Source of the DNA: a virus | Direction: 5' to 3' (one strand) | DNA: 45,616 nucleotides | IMG/VR virus record: IMGVR_UViG_3300005056_000006 | In this document: in pieces, positions 11,452 through 45,616 of the stretch | Numbering within the stretch: the stretch's first letter is position 1 | Layout of the letters: each line of letters opens with the position of its first letter | Position numbers and translations under genes: made by a program | The notes under the pieces: generated by a model | The model's input: the letters and a program-made list of their open reading frames with translations, nothing else | Databases searched by the model: none | What the model was told of the DNA's origin: nothing

Positions 11452-11481
11452 TTGTTTAAGTTTTAATTTGTTAATACCCTA

Positions 11482-11511
11482 CAAATATACTACAATACTT
11501 TTAATACACAA
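11482..11511 (-). promoter_or_regulatory. Promoter TTG-N19-TATATTTG
   Basis: TTG at 11511..11509, 19-nt spacer, box at 11489..11482, about 31 nt before ATG 11451. Confidence 0.5.
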
Positions 11512-11573
11512 CTATAATACAAAGAAAGTTTAATAATAAATGCTAACTATCTGATTTACAATTAGAATAATTT

Positions 11574-11984
11574 TTAATAAAACTCCTCGATGTTTTCTTT
11601 TATCTCACTTTCTCCAAAATCAAAGTACTTGTTTATGCTAATTATAAAAGCAGCATAAAGCTTATCAAAGTCATCTTGACTCATCTTAGCGAATGAAATA
11701 CTCTTTGGCTCAGTTCTTATTTGACCTGTAAATGTTTCGTGTTGCTCATAAAATCCACTTGCTATTGTTAAATCCCTTCTTAGATGCTCAATATTATTAT
11801 ACTTCTCTTGATTCTCGTAAACCATGTTAATTAAAGCAAAAAACTTTCGATGAAATGCTACATTTCGAGGCTTAACAATTGTCGCTTCATAAGTTTCACC
11901 TATCTTTAGTTTCTTCTTAGTATCTAAGTCAGAGCCATATAAAGGAATTAATCCTATATCTGTACATTTTAATAGTAGTTTCAT
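11574..11984 (-). CDS. DUF1367-like protein
   Basis: KPRNVAFHRKFFALINMVYENQ resembles the DUF1367 core. Lies next to rusA. Confidence 0.45.
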   Translation of the reverse strand: MKLLLKCTDIGLIPLYGSDLDTKKKLKIGETYEATIVKPRNVAFHRKFFALINMVYENQEKYNNIEHLRRDLTIASGFYEQHETFTGQIRTEPKSISFAKMSQDDFDKLYAAFIISINKYFDFGESEIKENIEEFY

Positions 11985-41545: not shown

Positions 41546-42577
41546 TTAAACAAAAGCAAATGCCATCATTGGCGTTTCTCCTGCCGTACTCATAGGAGCA
41601 TGAACATAAGCAACATCAACTGAAAATTCACTTTCCAATTTAACATCTTGTAAATAACCTCCAATTGAAGAAGCATCCGCACTTGTTTCGTAAGTGTGTA
41701 CAGCATACTGTAATGCATCAATAGGATTAATCAATGATCCAAAGTTTGCAACAGTTGTGTTAACACCTCTTACGTTTTGAATCGGAATCCAATTTGGTGC
41801 AGCAACTGAGCCATCAGGAACTACAATCCAATAACCTTTAGCATATGCAGAAACTAATCCAGCAGCAGCAGCAGTTAATGTAATGTCATTTACAAACGTT
41901 ACACCACCCATTTGGAATGCTGTATTTGTTGCGTTTGTTGCTCCATTTGCAGCCAACACTTTGAACTTGCTAAATGCGATAGGGTCACAAACTACTGTAT
42001 GTCCGACACCTTGATATTCGTTAATGTCCATAATAGACTTAGTAACGTCAATTGCAGTATTACCATATAAAGTTTCTGTAATCTCGAAAGTGTCATCTGT
42101 TGCATCAAATGATCCAAATGATGTTGATACGTTTACTCCCGAACGATTAGCAAATAAATAACCAGAAGCAGCAGCTTCCAATCCGTTTGCCATGTTAGCA
42201 ATAAAGTTTTCCATTTTGTTTGCATGCATATCTTCTAGAGACATTACTTTGTTATCCGCTTCTTTCAAAGATGATACAAACTTGTCTGTATAAGTTGCCC
42301 ATGTTGGTGTTAATACTCCAGAATCTCCCTGAACTCCTGTATGATTGTGCGATCTAGCACTACCTAAAGCTCTAAGTTGTTTAATATCGTAATTAAACTC
42401 TGTTACTGGTTTATCCTCTCTGTCTCTTGTTTCAGAAGCCTGAGGTATTAATAATGCTGTGTTTCTTAAAAACATCTTGTGTACTACTGGTTCTCTAAAG
42501 CGTAACTCAGCAGCATTGAAGGCTCTAGTTATCTTTACTTGAGATTTTACTAGTTTAGCCGTGTCAAAATTTGCCAT
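41546..42577 (-). CDS. Major capsid protein (HK97-fold type presumed)
   Basis: 343 aa, A/G/T/V-rich, typical size. Has its own promoter box and long leader. Confidence 0.6.
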   Translation of the reverse strand: MANFDTAKLVKSQVKITRAFNAAELRFREPVVHKMFLRNTALLIPQASETRDREDKPVTEFNYDIKQLRALGSARSHNHTGVQGDSGVLTPTWATYTDKFVSSLKEADNKVMSLEDMHANKMENFIANMANGLEAAASGYLFANRSGVNVSTSFGSFDATDDTFEITETLYGNTAIDVTKSIMDINEYQGVGHTVVCDPIAFSKFKVLAANGATNATNTAFQMGGVTFVNDITLTAAAAGLVSAYAKGYWIVVPDGSVAAPNWIPIQNVRGVNTTVANFGSLINPIDALQYAVHTYETSADASSIGGYLQDVKLESEFSVDVAYVHAPMSTAGETPMMAFAFV

Positions 42578-42612
42578 TTGTATTTTGGTTTTAATGAATG
42601 AAAATTGTTAAT

Positions 42613-42648
42613 GAAGCACGGCTTCTTAGACTTTCGAATACAATTCGA
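42613..42648 (-). promoter_or_regulatory. Conserved double-hairpin leader motif, copy A (before the capsid gene)
   Basis: 30 of the first 34 positions are identical to 38389..38422. GAAGC-N3-GCTTC plus a second stem with one compensatory change. Confidence 0.5.
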
Positions 42649-42653
42649 TGGTA

Positions 42654-42661
42654 CAAATATA
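42654..42661 (-). promoter_or_regulatory. -7 box TATATTTG upstream of the capsid gene (no -33 TTG)
   Basis: Motif match. Lies downstream of terminator 42712..42742. Confidence 0.45.
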
Positions 42662-42662
42662 C

Positions 42663-42698
42663 AATTATTATGTTAAATAGAATTATTATGTTAAATAG
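42663..42698. repeat. Perfect 18-bp tandem duplication AATTATTATGTTAAATAG x2
   Basis: 42663..42680 equals 42681..42698. Confidence 0.9.
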
Positions 42699-42711
42699 AA
42701 TTTCTATAAAT

Positions 42712-42742
42712 AAAAAAACCTACCAAATTAATGATAGGGTTT
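42712..42742 (-). terminator. Intrinsic terminator (module copy 1, weaker stem)
   Basis: Same 27-nt sequence as 43834..43860. The stem needs a bulge. T-run on the minus strand. Confidence 0.5.
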
Positions 42743-42844
42743 AAGTAAAAGAGCAATCTGTTAATTCAGCGTTTTAAACTCCCTAGTACTAAGGAAGTAC
42801 CAATTACTTTTCGTTCATCTTCAAGCAGGATATAAACATAATGA

Positions 42845-43360
42845 TTATTTAATTACCTTATTGACTCTATTATCAGAATCCCTAGTTAAAGCACTCTCTA
42901 CAGCAAGCCAACAGTCTTTCATTTCTTTAATTGACGTTCCGTATCTCATGGCGTAGTCAGTCATTGTTTCGCCTCTTTTTGGTGGTCTACTTGGTTTATT
43001 CATAAAGTCTGGGTAATCATATTTGGCTATACAATTCTTCTCATAAGCTAGTCTTGCATCAAACGCTCGATTATAATTATCAATACTCTCTTGAGTTGGT
43101 ATGTTAGCAACATTAATAAAATTAGGAGCTGCATATTCATTTACTATTATTGAACTAATCCTTTTACCTCTTTGCTCTACCCAAAACCTATTACTGATAA
43201 GTGTTTTTTGATTTACCAGTCTTATACCTCTCCATTTTAGCTTACCCTTTGTAATATCTCCCTTTATTATAGGAACTGCTAAGTTTCTCAAAACATATTC
43301 TAAGAACTCCTCTCTTTCAGAATCAAATGATTTAATAAGCTTTTCTATTGTTTTTTCCAT
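42845..43360 (-). CDS. Hypothetical protein (accessory island)
   Basis: 171-aa tracked ORF. Confidence 0.55.
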   Translation of the reverse strand: MEKTIEKLIKSFDSEREEFLEYVLRNLAVPIIKGDITKGKLKWRGIRLVNQKTLISNRFWVEQRGKRISSIIVNEYAAPNFINVANIPTQESIDNYNRAFDARLAYEKNCIAKYDYPDFMNKPSRPPKRGETMTDYAMRYGTSIKEMKDCWLAVESALTRDSDNRVNKVIK

Positions 43361-43371
43361 TTCTTTTAAAA

Positions 43372-43662
43372 TTAATTAAAGCACCATAGATGCTCATCGT
43401 TATTTATCTTGTTAGTATATTCAATTTTATACTTATAATTAACTTTTGGTTTTTTATCTATAAACCACCTTCCTAATGAGTCAAACCAACCATTTCCAGC
43501 AAATGAAACACAGTTAATTCTATGTTGTTTTTTAATCATTCTTATTTGCTTACCTCCGCTCTTAACTTCTTCTGAATATCTAATTGCAGCCTCTTGTATT
43601 TTAATCTCATTTTCTCTTAACAGACTCATATCAACTGATGGTAACATCATATTACATACCAT
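43372..43662 (-). CDS. Hypothetical protein (accessory island)
   Basis: 96-aa tracked ORF about 20 nt after the leader terminator. Confidence 0.5.
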   Translation of the reverse strand: MVCNMMLPSVDMSLLRENEIKIQEAAIRYSEEVKSGGKQIRMIKKQHRINCVSFAGNGWFDSLGRWFIDKKPKVNYKYKIEYTNKINNDEHLWCFN

Positions 43663-43682
43663 AATCTAAAACTTTTTATAAC

Positions 43683-43724
43683 AAAAAAAAGCCCCGTTCT
43701 TTTGAAACGAGGTTAGGGGGCTTT
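43683..43724 (-). terminator. Leader terminator: GCCCC...GGGGC hairpin plus U8
   Basis: GC clamp 43691..43695 / 43717..43721, inner GTTC-TTTT-GAAAC stem, A8 on the plus strand (43683..43690). Confidence 0.65.
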
Positions 43725-43805
43725 AAAAAGGTATTATCCTTTTATAAAATACTATATGTCTTTATTTGTTGTTATCTATAACCTCGTTTCAAAAAGTAGA
43801 TAACA
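43700..43805 (-). promoter_or_regulatory. Leader RNA element: 9-bp hairpin presenting a 16-nt loop sequence complementary to the terminator 5' arm
   Basis: 43770..43778 / 43797..43805 form the stem. 43779..43794 is the exact reverse complement of 43700..43715. Confidence 0.55.
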
Positions 43806-43808
43806 TTG

Positions 43809-43816
43809 CAAATGTA
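43809..43816 (-). promoter_or_regulatory. -7 box TACATTTG
   Basis: Motif match, between two terminators. Confidence 0.45.
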
Positions 43817-43832
43817 GTATTAATTATTGGAT

Positions 43833-43863
43833 AAAAAAAACCTACCAAATTAATGATAGGTTT
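43833..43863 (-). terminator. Intrinsic terminator (module copy 2)
   Basis: AACCTACCA / TGATAGGTT stem with one mismatch, loop AATTAA, then a T run (8) on the minus strand. Confidence 0.65.
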
Positions 43864-43966
43864 TAAATATAAGTGTGTAACATAATTATTGCACTACTAT
43901 TGATTGTTAGATTGTTTGTTGCACATTAGTTGTATATAGCCACGTGTTAGCAAACATTAAAACGTT

Positions 43967-44194
43967 TTACATCATTTGCTGTGCTGCATCTTCCATTCCT
44001 GCAAAGTATGCTATCTTTTTTTGCTCTTCCAACTCTTCTTTGCTAACACTACCTAAAGCAACATTAACTTCGTTTTTGTGGTTCTCGCAAAGGTGCGTTA
44101 TTCTGCTAATCAAATCAGCTTTATTAATTTTATAACCGCTTTTTCTAAAGCAATCATCTGCTAAACTTTCTATTGTCATTGTATCGTAGTTCAT
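43967..44194 (-). CDS. Hypothetical protein (accessory island)
   Basis: 75-aa tracked ORF. Its 5' flank is near-identical to that of 44248..44535. Confidence 0.5.
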   Translation of the reverse strand: MNYDTMTIESLADDCFRKSGYKINKADLISRITHLCENHKNEVNVALGSVSKEELEEQKKIAYFAGMEDAAQQMM

Positions 44195-44247
44195 AATCTT
44201 TGTAGTTTTTAATCGTTAACGTTCTTTAGCTTTGTCATTAGCGGTAA

Positions 44248-44535
44248 TTAAACATCATATTGTGGTGAGCAATAACATTTGCCATTTTTCTGCTCATCAT
44301 CAAGGCAGCAATCGCAATAGTTACTATTTAAGTCTTGCCGATCCTCCTTGGTTAGGGCTTTGTATTGTTCTGCTAAAGAACTACCGATAACATTATCTAT
44401 AGGTAATGCTTGCCCTTGCTTTATCTCGTTTAGGGAGTCATTAATTCTTTTCTTAATATCTACCGTACTATATCCAACAACATCTAAGTAAGAGTCTATG
44501 CTTTTTAATGTTGCAATTGTTATTTTGTAATCCAT
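44248..44535 (-). CDS. Hypothetical Cys-rich-tail protein (accessory island)
   Basis: 95-aa tracked ORF with C-terminal YCDCCLDDEQKNGKCYC. Confidence 0.5.
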   Translation of the reverse strand: MDYKITIATLKSIDSYLDVVGYSTVDIKKRINDSLNEIKQGQALPIDNVIGSSLAEQYKALTKEDRQDLNSNYCDCCLDDEQKNGKCYCSPQYDV

Positions 44536-44589
44536 AATCTTTTATAGTTTTTAAGTTCGGGCAATCACTACCCATAGTTTAGCTATTAA

Positions 44590-44630
44590 TTAAAAAACCC
44601 CTAAGCATCCGACAAGACTACTTAAGGGTT
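44590..44630 (-). terminator. Intrinsic terminator (also a leader terminator for promoter 44668)
   Basis: 10-bp stem with one mismatch (44596..44605 / 44621..44630), then a U-rich tail (UUUUUA) on the minus strand. Confidence 0.6.
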
Positions 44631-44667
44631 AGTATAATTTCTTTAGTTACTGTCGGTTAACTTATTG

Positions 44668-44697
44668 CAAATATACAATAATTATTAAAAAGGACAA
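44668..44697 (-). promoter_or_regulatory. Promoter TTG-N19-TATATTTG
   Basis: TTG at 44697..44695, 19-nt spacer, box at 44675..44668. Confidence 0.5.
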
Positions 44698-44939
44698 TCT
44701 TTTGAAATGGTTTTATCAACTTTAAAATTAATAATACCAGTCATTGACTCTAATTGACTCATTGATAACCTCTTTTGATTTAATAAATAACCATTATGAT
44801 TTCCCACCTTAATAATATTAAGCTCTTTTAATGGAAGAAATCTTTTACCTATCATTTGAGGTAATCTGAAAAGTATTTTATATTTCCATCCGTATAGATA
44901 GCCTTTAAAAGTTATTCCATATTCATAATTTATAATCAT
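44685..44939 (-). CDS. Hypothetical protein (accessory island)
   Basis: 84-aa tracked ORF. Confidence 0.45.
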   Translation of the reverse strand: MIINYEYGITFKGYLYGWKYKILFRLPQMIGKRFLPLKELNIIKVGNHNGYLLNQKRLSMSQLESMTGIINFKVDKTISKDCPF

Positions 44940-44986
44940 ATTTTACATATTTAGTGTTGTTTATCCGCTTGTTAGGGTGCATTAAG

Positions 44987-45091
44987 CTACACCTTAACAA
45001 TTTTTCTTTCTCCTTTGCAGTGGGCGTAACCTATATCAGATACTACTACCCAAAATCTACCTACTTTAATCTCGTACTGTGTTCTTTTCAT
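44987..45091 (-). CDS. 34-aa ORF bracketed by a 16-bp inverted repeat (uncertain)
   Basis: Hand-translated: MKRTQYEIKVGRFWVVVSDIGYAHCKGERKIVKV. Confidence 0.2.
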   Translation of the reverse strand: MKRTQYEIKVGRFWVVVSDIGYAHCKGERKIVKV

Positions 45092-45210
45092 AATTTATAC
45101 AATTAACGCACCCTAACACTGGCTAAAATTAATAGCCTAATTAGGTCTTGCTGTAATTTTATTGGTCAGTAATTAACGGCTACTAACCTTAACCTAAGCA
45201 TTAATTAAAA

Positions 45211-45218
45211 CAAATGTA
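45211..45218 (-). promoter_or_regulatory. -7 box TACATTTG
   Basis: Motif match downstream of terminator 45261..45294. Same 10-mer (CAAATGTACG on the plus strand) as at 6201. Confidence 0.35.
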
Positions 45219-45260
45219 CGCAATTAAATTGATTATATGTAAAAGTATGTAATTATTCAT

Positions 45261-45294
45261 ATAAAAAAAGCCCTACTAATTAAAGTAAGGCTTT
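45261..45294 (-). terminator. Intrinsic terminator after the scaffold-like gene
   Basis: 11-bp stem with one mismatch (45267..45277 / 45284..45294), loop AATTAA, T-run on the minus strand. Confidence 0.65.
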
Positions 45295-45319
45295 CCGACA
45301 TGAAAGAAAAATAGAAAGT

Positions 45320-45616
45320 CTATACTTTTAATGTTCCTGCGGACATCCTTTCCTCCATTTGTTTAAGAAACTCTGGACTGTTTGGATCAGTATTGTTGTC
45401 TGCCATTTCCTCTATAAACTTCTCTATAGATTGTGTAGCATCAGCACCTCTAGAGTCTCCTCCTCCTGCTCCTCCAGAAGCTCCTTTTGTGTATTGTGTG
45501 TTTTCAGCAAAGAAAGTACCTACAATCTCTTTTAAGGGTGTTAACTCTAAAGTAGTAGAATTCTTTAATGGGTTACCATCTGCTCCGATACCAAACACTT
45601 GACCATGCTCGTTAAC
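45320..45616 (-). CDS. 3' part of the wrap-around scaffold-like gene (45518..45616 duplicates 1..99)
   Basis: The tracked ORF 45320..45598 begins inside the duplicated sequence. The frame is continuous with 630..1. Confidence 0.6.
   Translation of the reverse strand, partial: VNEHGQVFGIGADGNPLKNSTTLELTPLKEIVGTFFAENTQYTKGASGGAGGGDSRGADATQSIEKFIEEMADNNTDPNSPEFLKQMEERMSAGTLKV
45518..45616. repeat. Terminal direct repeat, copy 2
   Basis: Base-by-base comparison, 99/99. Confidence 0.97.

Follow-up and report, generated by a model that had tools for sequence, protein, structure and literature searches.

The virus record IMGVR_UViG_3300005056_000006 is a stretch of 45,616 nucleotides (nt), referred to here as the window, in which all genes lie on the minus strand and include those for a tape-measure protein, a capsid protein, a Terminase_3 large terminase and a DnaB helicase. 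The window is a tailed-phage genome of the siphovirus type. The element under study lies at 43683..43816 on the minus strand, ahead of two small genes, and by its sequence it appears to be a discrete non-coding RNA of about 122 nt, running from a promoter to an intrinsic terminator. Its 5' hairpin carries a loop that complements the apex of the terminator at the other end, and the RNA appears to belong to a family of Bacteroidota-phage leaders defined by this complementarity. All evidence on the element and its relatives is computational. Designations such as L010, L015 and L033 refer to contigs carrying candidate relatives.

Anatomy of the leader unit

The unit opens with a -7 promoter box, TACATTTG, at 43816..43809 (minus strand), where a preliminary description of this DNA had placed it. 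The box is of the Bacteroidota sigma-A type and fits the consensus TAnnTTTG exactly. Across the window, nine intergenic minus-strand -7 boxes stand ahead of gene starts or leaders, and a box of this kind is present upstream of nearly all relatives of the unit as well. Since the -7 box of Flavobacterium psychrophilum occupies positions -12 to -5 relative to the start site (PMC9723704), transcription of the unit probably starts near G43804, 5 nt after the box and within the first bases of the first hairpin. The transcript would then end at a run of eight uridines (U8) and cover 43683..43804 of the minus strand, with its start set by the box position and its 3' end by the terminator.

The 5'-terminal hairpin, H1, occupies 43770..43805 (minus strand) and was delimited by repeat search and folding. 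Its outer stem is formed by UGUUAUCUA (43805..43797) and UAGAUAACA (43778..43770), a perfect inverted repeat of 9 base pairs (bp) that had already been noticed. The same description had assigned to H1 an 18-nt loop holding a 16-nt segment (16-mer). The 16-mer is there, while the loop is not open: folding predicts an inner stem of 5 bp between ACUUU (43797-43793) and GAGGU (43785-43781), including two G-U pairs, which leaves an apical loop of 7 nt, UUGAAAC (43792..43786). Both the inner stem and this loop are spanned by the 16-mer, UUUUGAAACGAGGUUA (43794..43779, minus strand), which is the 5' arm of a long-range complement and the possible antiterminator arm. The 3' arm, UAACCUCGUUUCAAAA (43715..43700, minus strand), lies 63 nt further on, and the inverted-repeat search finds the two arms to be exactly complementary over all 16 nt, as claimed at the outset. 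In 2000 composition-preserving shuffles, the first 50 nt and the last 60 nt never shared a complement of this length, which bears out the view that chance is an unlikely source. Moreover, the 16-mer is without another close copy in the 45.6-kb window, where the remaining matches carry three mismatches and are at chance level.

Between the two arms, folding predicts a small middle hairpin, AAAAGG-AUAAUA-CCUUUU (43726..43743, minus strand). It is present with altered loop and stem in L015 (AAAAAGG-GUAA-CCUUUUU) and L016 (GGG-UAA-CCC), and absent in the L033 subfamily.

The intrinsic terminator follows at 43683..43721 (minus strand). It consists of a clamp, GCCCC (43721..43717) with GGGGC (43695..43691), an enclosed hairpin, CCUCGUUU-CAAAA-GAACGGGG, at 43712-43692, and a C followed by U8 (43690..43683). 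With eight pairs, four of them G-C, ahead of the U-tract, it has the G+C-rich hairpin and the U-run that characterize intrinsic terminators. An independent terminator scan calls CCTCGTTT-CAAAA-GAACGGGG with CTTTTTTTT at 43712..43692, in agreement with the earlier reading of a GC-clamped hairpin and U8 as an intrinsic terminator; in this region, the scan returned 5 terminator-like sites, with 1.0 expected. The 3' arm of the long-range complement covers the 5' arm and the loop of the terminator hairpin.

Two genes lie behind the terminator at 42845..43662 (minus strand), encoding proteins of 96 amino acids (aa; 43662-43372) and 171 aa (43360-42845). The ATG of the first, open reading frame (ORF) 43372..43662, sits 20 nt past the U-run, exactly the distance that had been estimated. 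A scan of the window found no further -7 box between the U-run and this ATG. Hence, from the TACATTTG promoter, the two genes can be reached only by read-through of the terminator.

The predicted energies of the two possible structures are close. Taken alone, the best terminator hairpin in the window reaches -9.3 kcal/mol, compared with -20.8 kcal/mol for the 16-bp duplex. For the whole 122-nt RNA, the state with two hairpins, which includes the terminator, has -23.8 kcal/mol, and the long-range or antiterminator state has -25.2 kcal/mol, a gap of 1.4 kcal/mol. The folding analysis that had been proposed for alternative states thus reveals two near-isoenergetic folds. The RNA is also more stable than its dinucleotide shuffles (z = -2.9 to -3.6).

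Relatives and the conserved loop-terminator complementarity

Relatives of the unit were obtained by several routes. L015 and L016 were found in metagenomes with a gapped DNA pattern for the two arms, and L033 was found in a viral contig with a pattern for the H1 outer stem. In L016 and L033, the protein encoded immediately before the element served as a search query, and the contigs of its matches contained more units; among the close relatives of L033, this protein shares 62-99% identity with the L033 query. Further units came from a final scan in which the base of the terminator was the anchor. Some of the patterns derive from the window and predetermine the H1 outer stem of L033 and the arm cores of L015; they contain neither the terminator nor the complementarity of the loops nor the covariation.

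The relatives share one architecture: a -7 box, present in nearly all of them, precedes a 5' hairpin, which a linker joins to an intrinsic terminator ending in a U-tract. The H1 outer stem TGTTAT/ATAACA is common to the window, L015 and the L033 subfamily. The closest relatives, L015 and L016, share approximately 80% identity with the window, but only over the span bounded by TTGCAATGTTAT and the U-run; their flanks are unrelated: an XRE-type helix-turn-helix (HTH) gene lies upstream and a membrane protein is encoded about 150 nt downstream. It is this limited range of homology that argues for a discrete unit. Within it, the clamp, the terminator hairpin and the U-run are conserved, and a U-G pair of the H1 inner stem in the window is replaced by C-G in L015.

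The feature that persists across the whole family is the complementarity between the loop of the 5' hairpin and the apex of the terminator. It is found in every type, in at least eight unrelated sequences and over 6-16 nt. Naming the segment of the 5' hairpin first and that of the terminator second, the window has UUUUGAAACGAGGUUA and UAACCUCGUUUCAAAA (16 nt), of which L015 and L016 retain the core on both sides (13 nt). L171, L183 and L186 carry GUUCCGUCUCAAA and UUUGAGACGGAAC (13 nt), and L160-L170 carry CCUCUGAC and GUCAGAGG (8 nt). Complements of 7 nt are formed by GUAGAAG and CUUCUAC in L033, L187, L197, L192 and L195, by GUAGGAU and AUCCUAC in L172, L189, L191 and L196, by GGUGAAG and CUUCACC in L184, L188 and L194, and by GUACGAG and CUCGUAC in L174. 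L176 has UCGCAC and GUGCGA (6 nt), and a second unit in the window itself, described below, has CCGACAG and UUGUCGG (7 bp, one of them G-U). The short complements of 6-8 nt are not significant singly and gain weight only from their position at the apices and from the family-wide pattern.

Several tests address this pattern. When each half is folded independently, the 7-mers fall in apical loops. Each hairpin matches its own terminator over 6-16 nt, whereas combinations of hairpins and terminators from different units match over 4.6 nt on average, and only one of 200,000 permutations reaches the observed sum. In an alignment of five sequences (A2), four of the seven loop-loop pairs have changed on both sides and 100% of the cells are paired. 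None of 500 shuffles attains the observed paired fraction or covariation score, and registers slid along the alignment are only 28-56% paired. Among the 12 distinct sequences of one subfamily, each of three loop alleles occurs only with its matching partner (P = 3.6e-5 under random pairing), while the inner stems (GAUGU/ACAUC, GAAG/CUUC, AGUAG/CUACU, AUCGG/CCGAU and GAUGG/CCAUC) and the linkers are distributed as a mosaic among the three alleles. This count was made by script, as a gap in alignment A3 shifts the second-loop register of two rows. The number of independent lineages in the comparison is modest.

The matched alleles in the 12 sequences and the changes on both sides in A2 show that the pairing of loop and terminator is under selection and that the unit is a genuine RNA control element. 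The covariation analysis called for in the preliminary description gave a positive answer: both arms are retained in homologous as well as analogous loci, with compensating changes wherever their sequences diverge. The outcome named there as a refutation, neither arm conserved and no compensation, is clearly not seen. The conserved principle of the family is complementarity from loop to loop, not competition with the terminator stem.

Searches by sequence returned little else. Rfam 15 has no match across the whole window, and a permissive Rfam search of 43600-43900 gave best scores of at most 20 bits, compared with thresholds of 42-229. A BLAST search with the element against isolate phages gave no match. 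The exact 16-mer has three single matches in viral contigs, clearly by chance, and the paired-arm pattern found nothing in viral contigs or representative genomes. At least 120 matches to the H1-stem pattern occur in genomes, mostly in coding sequence or by chance, and none has the full architecture. The pattern for the second window unit had no matches. L011-L014 and L017, which came from the same metagenome scan as L015 and L016, were discarded as unrelated palindromes and tRNA-region matches. As a separate observation, 315-418 of L012 and 3624-3727 of L017 are G+C-rich and by eye resemble tRNA clusters, in opposite orientations and unrelated to the element.

Function of the unit and comparison with known systems

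The reading favoured here, plausible though evenly poised, is that the window unit is a bistable, partially terminating leader that gates the genes for the 96-aa and 171-aa proteins. Transcription would start about 5 nt after TACATTTG, and the RNA would begin with H1. Approximately 85 nt later, the polymerase would make the weak terminator CCUCGUUU-CAAAA-GAACGGGG, whose 5' arm and loop match the top of H1. The emerging complement could nucleate on the 7-nt apical loop of H1, and pairing might then spread through the wobble-weakened inner stem into a helix of 16-17 bp that excludes the terminator hairpin. If H1 stayed closed long enough, the terminator would form and a 122-nt small RNA would be released. 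In effect, the leader would set the share of promoter output that reaches the two downstream genes. No ligand or protein partner is indicated for it.

The energies are consistent with such a balance in part of the family. Mutually exclusive folds of comparable stability, the generic mark of terminator/antiterminator leaders, are found in the window, L015 and L160. The two-hairpin and long-range states of L015 have -23.1 and -22.5 kcal/mol, and the values for L160 are -28.3 and -27.6, or -23.5 and -27.0 kcal/mol, according to the start site; both balances resemble that of the window. Of the initial proposal of an attenuator or riboswitch, the terminator/antiterminator part therefore holds for the window copy, given the overlap of the arms with the terminator and the gap of 1.4 kcal/mol, while the riboswitch part does not, as there is no conserved core and no Rfam match.

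Several observations weigh against this reading. In a nested-fold equilibrium, 92% of the ensemble is in the antiterminator state, so that the terminator would rarely act unless folding kinetics or a factor intervened. Relatives with 7-nt loops lack the generic pair of comparable, exclusive folds. The complement of 13 distinct relatives comprises no more than the 7-nt apical loop of a strong terminator, whose stem it leaves untouched and cannot unfold; among these, the L033, L172, L184 and L174 types have strong terminators (-14.5 to -25.2 kcal/mol). In L171 and L183, the terminator state is favoured by 5-8 kcal/mol. Owing to the 7-nt-loop types and to these energies, antitermination in cis cannot operate throughout the family, and the loop-loop contact may have the same role in the window copy as it has in those relatives. 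The energies were obtained with RNAfold without the kissing (pseudoknotted) state, and they bracket the real behaviour rather than describe it fully. For the window copy, a comparison of sense and antisense folding energies fails to single out the sense strand. A -33 element is not evident in the promoter either: the TTTG expected about 19-21 nt upstream of the box is represented by TTTT, a match in three of four positions, and this site overlaps the T-run of the upstream terminator. Additionally, the next plausible gene start lies about 150 nt downstream in L015 and L016 and about 490 nt downstream in L160-L170, where the unit thus resembles a free-standing small-RNA gene. In the latter lineage, the stretch of about 490 nt past the terminator has no called gene and does not differ among eleven contigs, which come from several samples; further non-coding RNA may lie there.

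The absence of a close gene in these two lineages is compatible with the alternative raised in the preliminary description, a terminated small RNA of about 120 nt. Developed further, this becomes a serious rival, possible but clearly less probable than the bistable leader, in which most transcripts stop at the terminator and the unit is a self-recognising small RNA acting in trans, with the H1 loop as a key and the terminator loop as a lock. Such an RNA might pair with other copies, as free dimers or with nascent or read-through leaders belonging to its own phage type, and might thereby subject the downstream genes to feedback control or type-specific immunity with no separate countertranscript. 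The loops behave as discrete, always-matched alleles on mosaic scaffolds, which is the pattern expected of specificity determinants, and the complementary 7-nt loops, carried by hairpins that stay intact, have the form of loops used in antisense recognition. In small RNAs, the terminator loop is a known site of pairing or regulation (PMC11979758). Geometry points the same way in the L033 subfamily, where H1 and the terminator are separated by a linker of 7 nt: judging from helix lengths, an intramolecular coaxial kiss seems sterically impossible, and a symmetric head-to-tail dimer would close well. The lack of any other target for the 16-mer in the 45.6-kb window also suits self-recognition, and a trans target elsewhere in the phage genome was dropped, as no second site occurs in the window. 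Against the rival, the window 16-mers can pair within one molecule across a 50-nt linker, which would leave little free RNA.

The genes behind the unit bear on the same question. In the loci reached by way of the protein encoded ahead of the L033 element, a start codon follows 12-17 nt past the U-run, a distance that, like the 20 nt of the window, is too short for another promoter, and the genes belong to a replication module (replisome-organiser-like with Toprim/DnaB primase-helicase, or DnaB). In L171-L188, the unit is in leader position before such replication genes; the window unit instead precedes two small genes without family match amid head genes, which does not favour the trans-acting RNA. 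The place directly before the replication module resembles that of the CI RNA of phage P4 (PMC4825925). L033 itself has, at 11474-11836 between the terminator of the unit and the replication genes, a 120-aa GIY-YIG-like gene (motif recognized by eye) that is missing at that position in the related loci L171-L187.

In P4 immunity, complementary segments in the untranslated leader of a phage operon govern premature termination before replication genes (PMC4825925), and the unit lies directly upstream of a primase-helicase or DnaB module in the L033-protein loci. P4 differs in employing three sites (seqA, seqC and seqB, the last inside a processed 79-nt CI RNA) and nuclease processing, whereas the present units have only two complementary segments, each on a hairpin apex, and an RNA that would end at its own terminator. 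Furthermore, there is no sequence similarity, and the hosts of P4 are enterobacteria rather than Bacteroidota. Another precedent for the trans-acting RNA is IsrK of the Salmonella Gifsy-1 prophage, whose single promoter yields both a short, terminated RNA and an mRNA resulting from read-through; the short form, a terminated leader, pairs in trans with its own read-through isoform (PMC4825925). IsrK, however, acts on translation through a long alternative helix with a downstream ORF, has no complementarity between a loop and a terminator loop, and is not known as a covarying family.

The attenuators of the plasmids pT181, pIP501 and pAMbeta1 are also leaders between a promoter and a (replication) gene with an intrinsic terminator, in which RNA-RNA pairing from a hairpin loop decides the outcome and an upstream segment can pre-empt the terminator. 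Their specificity is set by the loop and the upper stem (PMC3753616), the same parts that vary among the types of the present family. Unlike the window unit, in which the sequence of antisense polarity is the unit's own terminator apex, they need a separate antisense RNA from the opposite strand. No TAnnTTTG box was found on the opposite strand of the window units, L015, L160, L171 and L174, and a countertranscript system of the pT181 type was rejected for the window units on this basis. As an observation on other relatives, the linker ACAAAGATATT of L184, L192, L194 and L195 reads TATCTTTG on the opposite strand, the L188 linker ACAAAAATATT reads TATTTTTG, and the linker ACAAGATATT of L033 and L172 reads TATCTTGT, which fits the variant box TAnnTTGY. 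These could be promoter boxes for a countertranscript across the first hairpin.

Classical attenuators and the lambda PR'-tR' 6S RNA share with the unit the order of promoter and terminator with no gene between them, and the classical terminator/antiterminator leaders resemble the window in having an upstream segment whose pairing precludes the terminator hairpin. In the classical systems, a conserved sequence is read by a ribosome, tRNA, protein or ligand, none of which is indicated for the window unit, and lambda relies on the Q protein, which acts at the promoter, and not on RNA pairing to overcome tR'. A further parallel is the pRNA of phage phi29, about 120 nt long, whose two complementary loops covary between related phages and drive the formation of head-to-tail oligomers. 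The present family likewise has two mutually complementary loops covarying between phages (A2 and the 12-sequence set). The pRNA differs by a loop pairing of 4 nt and a three-way junction with which it docks on the portal in protein-primed podoviruses, while the present units consist of two or three independent hairpins ending in a terminator and stand as leaders before genes, and the window, with its tape-measure protein and Terminase_3 large terminase, is of the siphovirus type. No description of the element was found in the literature searched. It is apparently undescribed and would work like known attenuators under the control of RNA-RNA pairing; it has single features in common with pT181-type attenuators, P4 immunity, IsrK and the phi29 pRNA and lacks a defining feature of each.

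The remaining explanations fare less well. It is improbable that the unit is an element for RNA processing or stability, in which the long-range helix of 13-17 bp or a terminator helix of about 20 bp would serve as an RNase III site or a protective 5' structure. RNase III is well known to process phage leaders, perfect duplexes of 13-17 bp occur in the window, L015 and L171, and the RNA would start directly with a hairpin. Nevertheless, processing can explain neither the lasting complementarity of 7-nt loops on two separate hairpins nor the constant U-tract after the second.

An element acting as DNA, whether through half-sites for a protein, as an origin, as a packaging signal or as what is left of a small transposable element flanked by terminal inverted repeats, is very unlikely, even if the perfect 16-bp inverted repeat and the proximity to replication genes in the L033-protein loci might suggest it. 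Each repeat lies exactly at the apex of its own hairpin, and the stems use G-U pairs, which are A-C mismatches on the other strand. The -7 box is always upstream and the U-tract always downstream, oriented with the flanking genes. The 7-nt repeats, about 43 nt apart, would make poor half-sites, and the 16-mer is single-copy in the window, with no repeat family in viral and genome scans. A miniature transposon with 16-bp terminal repeats was dropped for the same two reasons, and a mimic of a CRISPR repeat, suggested by a likeness of H1 to Cas13b repeats, is untenable, since the sequences of the relatives are unrelated. Least probable of all is a metabolite riboswitch or leader-peptide attenuator: the unit does lie between a promoter and genes and has alternative terminator/antiterminator folds, but Rfam gives no match at the gathering thresholds or with permissive ones, most of the leader, its pairing segments included, differs entirely among relatives, leaving no conserved ligand pocket, and no leader ORF is conserved in the window and relatives (0-12 codons, differing in position and sequence; the only AUG ORF of the window leader has 5 codons and lies upstream of or at the presumed start site).

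The bistable leader is the favoured reading for the window copy; it and the trans-acting small RNA are not mutually exclusive.

Genome context and significance

The element belongs to a region of repeated layout. The stretch between 45.3 and 42.7 kb has five minus-strand terminators and comprises two consecutive cassettes, each composed of a box, a structured leader with a terminator, two small ORFs and a closing terminator, CCTATCATTAATTTGGTAGG. Cassette A extends from 44675 to 43833 and cassette B, which contains the element under study, from 43816 to 42712 (both minus strand). According to the terminator scan, the closing terminators, CCTATCATTAATTTGGTAGG with T7-8, are identical at 42712..42738 and 43833-43860 (minus strand). 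The 44-nt stretch around the terminator at 42712..42738 is 91% identical to the Cellulophaga phages phi4:1 and phi17:2, and this is the only DNA similarity of the 3.1-kb region 42500-45616 to isolate phages.

Cassette A begins with the second unit, of about 72 nt, at 44592..44675 (minus strand). It has a box TATATTTG (44675-44668), a hairpin AGUUA/UAACU with the loop ACCGACAG, and a terminator at 44628-44592 whose apex UUGUCGG pairs with that loop by six Watson-Crick pairs and one G-U pair (duplex energy -8.8 kcal/mol). This complement is too short to be significant alone and counts only within the family pattern. The unit precedes an unrelated pair of genes, encoding 95 and 75 aa. The proteins of cassettes A and B are unrelated to each other and have no family in Pfam, PHROGs, NCBIfam, PADLOC or the sequences of the PDB. 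Among 5.8 billion clusters, the 96-aa protein matches only itself, on contig L010, itself identical to the window. For the 171-aa protein, the only relatives are distant ones that match the N-terminal part and stand in other contexts, and the capsid protein has no close loci in viral or metagenome collections.

Two further arrangements were noticed nearby. At 42666-42701 (minus strand), the 18-nt ATTCTATTTAACATAATA occurs twice in tandem directly upstream of the -7 box TATATTTG of the capsid gene (42661-42654); this repeat could be the binding site of a regulator. In addition, GUGUUAGGGUGCG (45120-45108, minus strand) nearly duplicates the 5' arm of a hairpin at 45005-44970 and is perfectly complementary over 10-11 nt to its 3' arm GCACCCUAACA, with a 34-aa ORF (45091-44987) lying between. 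The segment 44970-45120 (minus strand) is thus another possible case of alternative pairing.

To our knowledge, regulatory RNAs of phages infecting Bacteroidota (Flavobacteriia) are almost unknown. The family described here offers a compact module of approximately 75-125 nt with a testable rule, according to which the loop of the 5' hairpin must match the apex of the terminator, and its relatives supply a natural set of apparently orthogonal loop pairs. Should the unit tune read-through, it would show how these phages adjust the output of accessory ("moron") and replication genes with no need of proteins. Action in trans would amount to antisense control free of a countertranscript, and the unit would be a source of orthogonal parts for RNA circuits. 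The unit might in that case exemplify a class of self-antisense RNAs, a possibility that merits serious attention without being the favoured one, in which the terminated leader carries both partners of a kissing-loop pair and copies recognise only their own allele, as dimers or on nascent leaders, providing each phage type with a private, protein-free circuit of feedback or immunity that acts on the genes past the terminator. The alleles GUAGAAG, GUAGGAU, GGUGAAG, GUACGAG, UUGAAAC and others could then, as tentatively as the class itself, be regarded as equivalents of incompatibility groups or immunity types.

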